Assembly (NCBI GenBank): GCA_049976845.1
Contig: JBMFHL010000005.1
Coordinates: 1 to 37,520, forward strand
Source: Candidatus Micrarchaeia archaeon
GTDB lineage: Archaea; Micrarchaeota; Micrarchaeia; Micrarchaeales; CABMGC01
Direction of reading: 5' to 3'
Length of the DNA stretch: 37,520 nucleotides
A program made the position numbers. Below are positions 21,001 to 24,000 of this stretch, in pieces. Position 1 is the first letter of the stretch, and each line of letters opens with the position of its first letter.

Positions 21001-24000
21001 TAACAGAGTTAAAAGAAAGGCTGAAGAAAAGGCATTATGCCAGTGAAAAGATAATGGATAATCTTGTAAGCGAGGCAACGGATTACTGCGGCATAGAAGC
21101 AAGCAGGAGGTACAAAAAAGTATTCGAATTCTATTCTCGTGACAAGAGCCTGGAAAAGAAAATACTAAATGCAATCAAGGGCAAAGCAGAGGGCGAATAC
21201 ATAGAGCTGCTCCCAGAGCTAAAGCAAATACTGAATCACAAAGAGATTTTTTCTAAAAGTGCAGCATAGGCTTCAGGCGCATACTTCCTAGGTATGTTAG
21301 AGAGTACCTTCGCTTTAGACATTTTTATCTCTTTTCCCAAATTCATTTCCTTAACTCTCACTATTGCCTTTAATGCATCAGAGGCATTCCTATACCTCTT
21401 TTTCTCTATTGCATAGAGCATGTCGTCTTTTATAATAAGACCAAGGGCCTTTGAGTGCTTCTCAATAAATTTTTCAGAATATTCTCCTTTGAAAGTGCTC
21501 GGGCCTTTCATCATTCTAGACGCTGATCTGTCGTCAGGCATGAAATAAAGCAAAAGCCCTTCGCCTTTTGAAATAAAAGAAGAATAGATATAAGTTTCAA
21601 ATCCCTCTTTAGCAGCTTCTGCCATTATAGCATTGCCAATCTTGTTAAGCTGAGGCCAAACAATATCCTCGCTCTCATCAGGAACCTTTACTACTATTAA
21701 ATACGGCCTTAAGCCGCTGTTCTTCTCAAACGCCTTTAAGAGCGACGGAGTTTTAAGGGAGGAAAATCCTTTACCATAGAAAAACCTAAGGCTTGGCTTC
21801 TTAAGCAGCTCCCTGGCTACTACTACAAACCTGGAGAGGGATTCGATTGAAACTCCAGCCGCAACATTCCTATTTGGATCCACAGGGTCTATTACGACGA
21901 ACTGCGCATTGAATTTCCTGAATATACTCTCATCCCTAACAATACTTTTATCCTTAGGGACTATGCACATAGGCAGTGAGAATTTGGTGGCGGCATCAAG
22001 CAGCTTTTCAAGCGAGCCGAAGGTATATACAAGCAGCTCACATAGGTAGCCTGAGAAGCCCTTTACCTTAACTTCTGCGCCGTATATGTGATGAGCCTTG
22101 AGTAGATATTTAAGCAATCTGACATCATCCCTCTGCCTGTCAGTGAAATTAGAATTTATGAAATCTGTGTGCAACGGGCTCCTATCAACGCTAGTCCCCA
22201 TCTCATTTATGTTGCTTATTTTGAAAGCAGGCACAAGGTCTACTTTTATGCCAAAATCATCTAAGTAAAGCCTCGCGTATGCATGCTCAGCATACTTAAT
22301 CTCAAGCCTCTCGTGCTTTTTCTTGCCAATAATCATTTTTGCATACTTTAAGCCAAGCTTGGATACCTCCTCATCGTCATATCTCTTGTTGAAAAGCATG
22401 AAAATATCTATATCAGAATCGCCAGATAGATTAGTGCTCCTTGCTATAGAACCTACAATCCTAAGCTCTACGTCTTTAGGTATTATCTTTTCTAGCCTCG
22501 ACATCACTTCGTTTGCATGGGCAATAGTGCTTTTCACTTCAAGATCATCAGGTTTTATCTCCTTCAATACCTGCCCAAAGATATTCCTAAGCTTCTTCTC
22601 CTTCTCTGCTTCCATGATAACTAATAGCATTAAAAACCTTAAATTAATAACTTTATTGCAGGGGCTCGTGGCTCAGTAGCAGAGCGTCTCGTTCGCAACG
22701 AGAAGGTCGCGGGTGCGATTCCCGCCGAGTCCACAAACTTCTTGGGAAGAAGTTTTATCAAGAAGCAGAAACTGCATATTTATAAATAAAAATAAGCAGA
22801 TACCCTATTTGGAGAAAAGTTCAATGTAAAGACTGTATCGTTGGATATATCTCCAGTGCAAAATTCCCTGCTAATTTAACAATGCTAGTGGGAATTCCAC
22901 ACTATTTAATTTGGGATATCACGGATAAGGTACCCTTCCATAAGCCCTAGGAAATGATATAGTATTTCTTATATTCTCTATGCCGAGTGCCCACCTCACA
23001 ATTCTATCTATGCCAGCACCAAGGCCCGAATGAGGCACGCATCCATAATCCCTTAATTCAATATACCATCTATACCTTTCTAGCTCCTCCGGCGTTTCCC
23101 TGCCCTTCTCTTTCATCCTGTCCAGGAGCTGCTGCTTGTCGCAGATCTTTTCAGCAACCCCTAATACTTCCCCAAAACCATTTGGCGCTATAAGGTCTTC
23201 AGTTCTTGTCTCTTTCTCGTTGCTGCTGTCCTTTTTGAAAGGGAACGACTCTGCGCTGCACGGTATGCCTTTTACAAATACTGGCTTTTTCATATCCTCT
23301 GAAAGTATTTTTTCTTCATCCGCACCCAGGCTAGCGCCCCATTCAATTTTGCTTCCTTTTGACTGGACCAAATCGATCGCCTCATCATATGTAATGCTCT
23401 TGTACGGAGGCTTAATGTCATTTATGTCAATTGCATTTTCAAACTCTTCAATTTCTTTGCTGCTTCTCTCCATCGCCGATTTTAGGGTCTCATAAAGAAC
23501 TTCCTCGGCAAATTTCTTCATGTCATCCAAATCTGCAAATGCGACCTCCGCCTTAAGGTGCCAATACTCTGCCAAATGCCTGTTTGTCCTGCTTTTTTCA
23601 GCCCTGAACGATGGCGTAATATTGTAAACTTTTTCAAAACCATGCACAGCAGCTTCTAATTGGAATGCAACACACTGCGATAAGAACATTTTCGTCCCGA
23701 AAAAATCAATAGGGAAAGCCATGCTGTCATCGTATAAGAGGGTCTGTGTTATAACAGGCGCATCTATGAAAACAAATCCTCTTTTATTGAACCATTCATG
23801 CATGGAATAGAGGAAATTGCTTTTGAATCTAAGCACTGACATCATTTTTTTGTTCCTTAAGTACAAGTGCCTTTTGCTTAAGTTGATATTTACATACTTT
23901 TTGTCAAATAAATCAAAGTTGCTCCTTGGGCTTGGCTCTATGCTAATAAGCGCCTCCCCTATTACTTCTACATCCTTAGCCTCTATCTCATGGGCTTTAT

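Follow-up and report, generated by a model that had tools for sequence, protein, structure and literature searches.

A dispersed 30-nt repeat with mirror-covarying tracts behind a tRNA-Ala gene of a micrarchaeon, a candidate source of archaeal tRNA introns

Behind the tRNA-Ala(CGC) gene of Candidatus Micrarchaeia archaeon lies a short palindromic sequence whose close relatives are found as introns of other tRNA genes, which raises the question of where such a sequence comes from and how it reaches a tRNA gene. The survey's finding was that these introns share their origin with the coding start of an integrase gene that targets tRNA-Ala. We analyzed the window, i.e., the whole stretch of 37,520 nucleotides, together with the rest of the genome and public sequence collections. 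The sole tRNA gene in the window is that of Ala(CGC), which is divergent from the gene of the CCA-adding enzyme, and the repeat starts directly 3' of the tRNA end (Table 1). Trm1, the CCA-adding enzyme and tRNA-Ala are clustered within 3.4 kb (19311–22733). The tRNA itself carries a G at position 55 of the T loop, and its D loop is without the GG; since its genus relatives show the same odd loops, we rejected the idea that it is a pseudogene.

Table 1. Features at the tRNA-Ala(CGC) locus (positions in the window)
Feature	Position	Strand	Basis or remark
tRNA-Ala(CGC) gene, intronless; integration target	22662..22733 (end 22733/4)	+	ARAGORN; Rfam RF00005, 66 bits; also in genus relatives
Putative att core, last 12 nt of tRNA-Ala	22722..22733	+	Occurs again at the distal end of short integrated units in relatives (L037, L041, L083, L153)
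Complete 30-nt repeat, putatively triplex-coded	22735..22764	+	Homology ends after the tail in non-tRNA copies
Left arm of the repeat	22735..22743	+	Pyrimidine tract at 22739–22743
Loop, 3 nt, free in sequence	22744..22746	+	Length of 3 nt in 135/160 copies
Right arm of the repeat	22747..22755	+	Purine tract 22747–22751 pairs with the pyrimidine tract; two-sided changes at 5/9 pairs
Linker, 8 nt (GTTT-N-ATC), from purine tract to mirror tract	22752..22759	+	Identical in archaeal and viral copies
Mirror tract, putative third strand of a triple helix	22760..22764	+	Mirror-rule counts
6 nt 3' of the repeat	22765..22770	+	Match the N-terminal coding sequence of the integrase behind the repeat in relatives; basis of the scar reading
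asnS-like gene	22919..24244	-	Between tRNA-Ala and sod; G016 and G017 lack it at this locus; probable islet cargo
CCA-adding enzyme gene	21236..22630	-	Conserved left neighbor; marks the orthologous locus

The sequence described as a 35-nt hairpin behind tRNA-Ala is indeed there, but the conserved unit is 30 nt long and consists of a 21-nt palindrome (22735–22755) with a 9-nt tail. In an Rfam search of this unit, no curated family was found and the gathering score was reached only by the tRNA; also, the folding energy of the repeat by itself is unremarkable (z -1.8). The unit can be written as RARC, y1–y5, loop, r5–r1, GYTY, N, ATC, t1–t5, namely, a pyrimidine tract, the complementary purine tract, an 8-nt linker and a mirrored purine tract in this order on one strand. 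The two arms covary, with position 7 being C–G in 64 and T–A in 22 of the 87 cores, and the tail covaries with the arms, t being the mirror image of r. Of 14 asymmetric variants, 11 had a mirror tail and none a direct repeat. Variant arms were next searched for in 301 genomes with the tail unspecified: the exact mirror tail followed in 13/15 and 34/39 copies (47/54 together, double variants included), the consensus tail in only 2 of the 54, and the controls gave 1 match each. In a second phylum (that of a record titled Aenigmatarchaeota), the rule is kept in 35 of 42 variant copies, so that it is broken in 7/54 and 7/42, respectively. Three-tract covariation is thereby documented across at least six states.

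Because templated copying yields inverted or direct repeats and never mirrors, we infer that the three coordinated tracts form base triples. A rigid double-stranded operator was rejected, given the symmetrical gains and losses of bases in the arms, which the tail tracks. A Watson–Crick duplex between tail and left arm fits the symmetric consensus only and is contradicted by the asymmetric variants, and conservation of the motif at the protein level was dismissed upon finding it read in two frames and as three variants. Purine-motif triplexes do not form in RNA, while the pyrimidine-motif ones are driven by T-A-T, according to passages of Holder et al. 2015 (PMC4666352). Since the transcribed strand of the repeat carries the purine order, with the pyrimidine order on its complement, the predicted triple-helical fold would more likely be one of DNA than of RNA. 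Only five good triads, rich in A, are available, and a sixth position sets C against G; the free triplex may hence be weak.

How far the repeat reaches into the tRNA genes of this genome was assessed by local alignment of the trailer to its introns, with 2000 dinucleotide shuffles each. The resemblance proposed for four introns was borne out (shuffle p 0.0005–0.0065): those of tRNA-Phe (33/37 identical, p 0.0005), tRNA-Thr(UGU) (30/35, p 0.0005), tRNA-Thr(CGU) (26/38, p 0.004) and tRNA-Ile(UAU) (24/32, p 0.0065). The tRNA-Tyr intron, once regarded as a borderline relative, is not significantly similar (20/32, p 0.23) and was rejected as a family member, and no significant alignment was obtained for the 8 other introns of the genome (p 0.19–0.86). 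All four intronic copies are inserted at 37/38. The bulge–helix–bulge (BHB) motif of introns, i.e., that position with a 4-bp central helix and a 3' bulge, is present in Thr(UGU) with 4/4 pairs, and the other three are imperfect and of the relaxed type, which is cut by the ARMAN-2 enzyme (PMC3239211).

The copies listed earlier for this genome are all present, yet three more had been missed: one immediately follows the 3' end of 16S rRNA (C20:9514), and a pilin-like gene contains two in its 5' part (C21:11243 and C21:11273); a reversed-genome control gave 1 weak match. A stable-RNA exon is thus adjoined by 6 of the 8 copies. The label "pilin-like" rests on the QSAMEY motif, which we take to be a signal motif, and Pfam detected only a LamG domain in two relatives of the gene. 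In expanded sets of such pilin-like LamG genes (L236–L244, L249–L256, L263–L265; C21:11243–11303 in this genome), the repeat lies in or before the signal peptide, and in those of one genome the tail is lost and the palindrome kept. As a separate observation, an 887-base contig of this genome carries two A/T-rich tRNAs (C47:475–635) that differ from the remaining tRNAs, and is possibly foreign DNA in the bin.

Filled and empty sites were then compared in relatives. Among the Thr gene rows in the family, 15/56 are intronless and 41/56 have an intron as scored by eye, the search pattern being matched in 39 of 118 genomes; 32 of the 41 introns are, again by eye, clear copies of the repeat, 6 partial ones and 3 unrelated, and both intronless and intron-bearing Thr genes occur inside one genus. 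Of the Phe rows, 25/62 are intronless under a pattern blind to introns longer than 30 nt, and an unrelated intron of 12 nt is present in two genus relatives. Most repeat-bearing introns carry a host-specific splice half 3' of the unit. The repeat tail CAARAA, nonetheless, equals the splice half needed by YUUG loops (positions 32–35: Thr-UGU and Ala-UGC); the end of the intron at L018 coincides exactly with the tail, and in Thr(UGU), CTTG finds its complement in the partner CAAG. These splice halves were read from the general geometry of the BHB motif. A further basis for that geometry is given in PMC3239211. Since most introns add a splice half and yet the tail can serve as one, the unit appears to invade existing introns and could also found new ones.

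The repeat is widespread in archaea. Within the order, 90 of 248 genomes contain the bare palindrome, with 10 matches in all for a reversed-pattern control, and the exact 26-base pattern was hit in 106 stretches in GTDB. All of the 80 titled stretches are archaeal and belong mostly to Micrarchaeota, but also to Aenigmat-, Pace-, Woese-, Iain- and Bathyarchaeia according to depositor labels, some of which are doubtful. In the phylum of the record titled Aenigmatarchaeota, 15 of 61 genomes matched (control, 2 matches). When the contexts of 111 distinct exact GTDB copies were sorted by script and by eye, 37 were tRNA introns, 33 followed the end of a tRNA or a 3' fragment of one, 3 followed 16S/23S (L070 and L092, considered as tmRNA, are 23S 3' ends), 2 lay in pilin-like N-termini and 36 elsewhere, counts that are overstated because kin are not independent. 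The intronic copies reside in Thr, Ala, Phe, Ile, Asn, Arg and Gly tRNAs, one of them in the T loop; these isotypes were read by eye, as sorting introns by spliced variants is unreliable for anticodons. In introns, 36 copies are in sense orientation and a single locus has an antisense copy. Genomes have 7–18 copies, and five repeat-rich ones have 10–18 palindromes each (control, 0). The copies elsewhere are often clustered, with close pairs arranged in tandem (23), tail to tail (14) and head to head (3), and the neighbors of the repeat are housekeeping genes. We also noticed a composite element (L003, L109, L125, L195) in which two tail-to-tail copies surround a G/C-rich spacer; it adjoins another conserved G/C-rich hairpin, for which Rfam gave no match.

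Is the integrase, then, the source of the repeat? At locus L020, the CCA gene and tRNA-Ala(CGC) are followed by a 336-aa ORF with PF00589 (E 9e-12), and the integrase reported there is hence real. Across the phylum, 103 of 301 genomes have a member of the family (among them the unpublished G024, on which no conclusion rests), and a metagenome scan for the integrase yielded no more than 3 loci. Of all matches, a part was examined, namely, 55 tblastn rows from the loci under study; 10 of these had no identifiable tRNA and 2 were duplicates. The motif is present in 5 of 18 tRNA-Ala integrases vs none of 25 at other tRNAs, which include Leu, Glu, Val, Lys, Ile and Pro (Fisher p 0.009, with kin not independent); one of the 13 tRNA-Ala integrases without it is 90% identical to a motif-bearing protein. 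In a tree of the 48 rows of at least 200 aa, which has a long-branch root and N-termini that recombine, the motif-bearing rows fall in three places, each beside motif-free sisters. Compared with these sisters, the motif is an in-frame gain of 24 nt before a box common to all types, and the slot is filled by three sequence variants in two reading frames, with L017 in the other frame. At L010 and L017, the hairpin occupies a slot of ancestral length with ancestral flanks, so that decay from, or in-place conversion to, the motif is possible there. The integrase query matched 0 of 61 genomes of the Aenigmatarchaeota-titled phylum, in which the repeat occurs.

Given this patchy presence, the 24-nt gain, the three variants, the two frames and the lack of integrase matches in the other phylum, the sequences indicate that the integrase is a recipient and then a later carrier of the repeat but not its origin. 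That the introns derive from the coding start next to att in the tRNA-Ala integrase, as the survey had favored, is thus largely refuted and in our view very improbable. It has in its favor the identity in sequence, the weak similarity of the motif-free slot to the motif, the 30 of 112 exact archaeal copies that follow a tRNA-Ala end, and the proposal of mobile elements as intron vectors (PMC3293823; PMC8371274); nonetheless, the repeat is far wider spread than the integrase and occurs both in the second phylum, where the integrase was not found, and in viral contigs.

Also, the term "SSV1-type" fits this integrase in its layout at most. PF16795 (Phage_integr_3), which is the domain of the SSV, pTN3 and pT26-2 integrase families (PMC8371274), was not found in the integrase P0001, where PF00589 alone was hit up to E 10. 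As in suicidal SSV-type integrases (PMC8371274), the frame may run through the tRNA-derived att site: it is open through the tRNA end, and 7 of 17 integrase rows lack an in-frame start before codon 45, although no clear start of int(N) was found. The Micrarchaeota family (L137–L166, L198–L217) targets at least 10 tRNAs and reads through the tRNA end in two frames; its att-in-gene integrases possibly have an independent origin.

The copy behind tRNA-Ala in this genome (the C5 copy) had been taken for an integration scar, and we find this still the likeliest reading, one that we hold to be quite probable. The 6 bases behind it match, at 5 or 6 of 6 positions, those behind 6 of 30 post-tRNA-Ala copies and behind 2 of 82 other copies (Fisher p 0.0045). 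At the same locus, an integrase is present in G066, and the genus relatives G016 and G017 have an empty trailer, with sod right behind the tRNA and no asnS-like gene there; the contig of G015 ends within the first bases of the motif. As had been stated, the genome retains no integrase body (tblastn, best E 0.07), nor was a second att copy found in its assembly, which is 90% complete. The asnS-like gene between tRNA-Ala and sod forms a small islet at the tRNA 3' end. Cassette-like islets of 0.7–1.7 kb bounded by tRNA-Ala 3'-end repeats are also seen at L016, L037, L041, L050 and L083, in one case two in a row.

The statement that the motif is absent from viral contigs holds for the exact archaeal form (0 stretches in IMG/VR) and not for the family, of which a relaxed pattern retrieved at least 157 stretches (scrambled-linker control, 6). 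Among the matches listed, 170 viral copies comprise 167 of the all-A variant, 2 of a mirror variant and 1 that breaks the rule; the mirror variants, 2 copies on one contig and 0 for the other pattern, are too few for a test of the rule. Letter-identical copies are frequent in contigs of giant viruses, and five full-length units agree in every letter between archaeal and viral loci, an identity that may be due to convergence, the all-A form being of low complexity. Genes near the viral copies, among the matches listed, include giant-virus capsids and virophage-type capsids. Likewise among the matches listed, none of 61 copies at 30 loci lies inside an ORF, 15 of 31 sense copies lie within -10 to +7 nt of a stop codon, and no tRNA was found near the copies at any of 34 loci. 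Tail-to-tail pairs number at least 31 in viral contigs. The repeat fills intergenic spaces of giant-virus-type contigs (L267–L346, IMG/VR), with up to 7 tandem copies (L297), and at L278:1469–4790 two adjacent virophage-type major capsid genes have the mirror-variant copies between them.

An enzyme that would mobilize the repeat was also sought. There were no transposases among 56 neighbor proteins of repeat copies, and none of 8 loci of the Y1 HUH transposase (in 4 of the 5 genomes searched) had a copy within about 1.5 kb; DUF559 and GIY-YIG gave 0 of 5 genomes searched for each with the queries used, and these three candidates, not linked to the repeat in the genomes searched, were rejected as mobilizers. 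Two broken Y1 transposase genes reside in this genome (C4:34620–34913 and C3:8473–8682) with no repeat copy nearby. As for the features of MITEs, tail-to-tail pairs are present, no target duplication was seen by eye at repeat copies, and no autonomous partner was found. Like REP/BIME–RAYT and Rickettsia palindromic elements, the archaeal repeat is a short palindrome that has a tail on one side only, forms clusters, lies behind stop codons and is inserted in frame into genes. REP/BIME are defined in PMC4666352. Unlike REP/RAYT, no repeat-flanked Y1 transposase was found here, and the third tract covaries as a mirror.

The closest likeness in architecture is to the bacterial class II intrastrand-triplex repeats BoxC/PIT/TMECO (PMC4666352), which have the same tract order on one strand (pyrimidine, purine, mirror purine), a length of about 30–36 nt, some twenty dispersed copies, tandem inverted pairs, and no known enzyme or function in that account. 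The archaeal repeat, however, is A/T-rich with 5 triads and an 8-nt linker, as against the G/C-rich 9-nt stems and 3-nt loop of these repeats; it has no sequence likeness to them and departs from the G/C-rich TMECO consensus in Table 1 of PMC4666352. Its 5 matched triads also fall short of the ITxF definition there (6–15, no mismatch below 7, loops of 1–6 nt). It lies in tRNA introns, at stable-RNA ends and in reading frames, whereas the word tRNA occurs 0 times in the main text of PMC4666352. The "large-scale intron transposition" of Thermoproteales (Fujishima et al. 2010, via PMC4090602; bioRxiv 10.64898/2026.10.13.758758) is similar in that one intron sequence occurs in several isotypes at canonical and T-loop positions; here, in contrast, most copies are outside tRNAs, and a non-tRNA donor is hence visible. 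The mobile-element model of intron gain (Sugahara et al. 2012, PMC3293823; PMC8371274) shares with our case the integrative elements at tRNA genes, the fragments and the rapid gain, but places the intron inside the att copy of the element (PMC3293823), while the att core here is the last 12 nt of the tRNA with the motif outside. In the literature searched, with subscription journals mostly outside the coverage, no published description of the repeat was found.

Taken together, we consider it probable that the repeat is a small, non-coding, non-autonomous dispersed element of DPANN archaea, inserted at the borders of transcribed units, with the integrase as a later vehicle. The three tracts would be conserved to let a single strand form a hairpin whose groove takes up a third strand, and this folded single strand would be what is copied or recognized, which would explain why its shape is held. 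The repeat would be copied to new places at the level of DNA, the hairpin end landing against the border of a transcribed unit, and would survive where processing discards it (tRNA introns and the trailers of tRNA and rRNA), just behind stop codons and in flexible N-termini where a protein tolerates it. Inside a tRNA, it would become an intron once a 4+2-nt splice half follows, and for YUUG loops its own tail could serve as that half. Copies behind the att site of tRNA-Ala would have fallen inside the integrase frame and then travelled with that element, the C5 copy presumably being a stub of such an event. Counted against this explanation are the lack of a mobilizer in our searches, the breakers of the mirror rule, the small number of triads and the strong sense bias in introns, which an RNA route or a host function predicts. 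It is doubtful, albeit possible, that all of this can be joined into one mobile micro-element with a three-stranded DNA fold, letter-identical in DPANN archaea and giant viruses and acting as a standing donor of tRNA introns, which targets tRNA exon borders, can bring a splice half and supplies the N-termini of integrases and pilins with new coding sequence.

A host function is the main competitor, though we regard it as rather unlikely: the repeat would be a structural signal (a pause, 3'-end formation or a protein landing site) selected by the host at stable-RNA borders and stop codons and spread by gene conversion. The adjacency of most copies in this genome to a stable-RNA exon, the three-way covariation kept across phyla and the stop-codon positions of the listed viral sense copies agree with such a signal, and giant viruses do end their mRNAs in hairpins. 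Most tRNA genes, however, have no repeat, relatives manage without it at the same locus, and it is found within introns, operons and reading frames, places in which termination would be harmful; bacterial PIT elements, moreover, show no promoter or terminator activity according to PMC4666352. Less probable still, and in our judgment improbable, is an escaped intron, namely, a Thr/Ala(YUUG) tRNA intron whose excised RNA was ligated to RNA ends or reverse-transcribed into DNA. While the tail as a 3' splice half for YUUG loops, the mostly sense copies at RNA ends and the head-to-tail arrays would be in line with this, the tail varies with the arms rather than with the anticodon loop of the host, in most introns it is followed by a separate splice half, and neither the tail-to-tail pairs in archaea and viruses nor the listed viral copies without tRNAs nearby need an intron.

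Intron gain is framed as unresolved in PMC3293823, PMC4090602, PMC3239211 and PMC8371274, and in a 2026 preprint the arrival of tRNA introns is left open, with copying, mobile elements and reverse transcription tested in Asgard archaea (bioRxiv 10.64898/2026.10.13.758758). The dispersed repeat favored here is a candidate source of new archaeal tRNA introns, for which donor, empty and filled sites can be compared directly because most of the Thr introns clearly copy a repeat also found outside tRNAs. Its three-way covariation would be natural evidence for selection on a triple-stranded fold, for which the bacterial repeats, as described in PMC4666352, offer no such covariation, and the same 30-mer in giant-virus contigs points to either a common enzyme or strong convergence.
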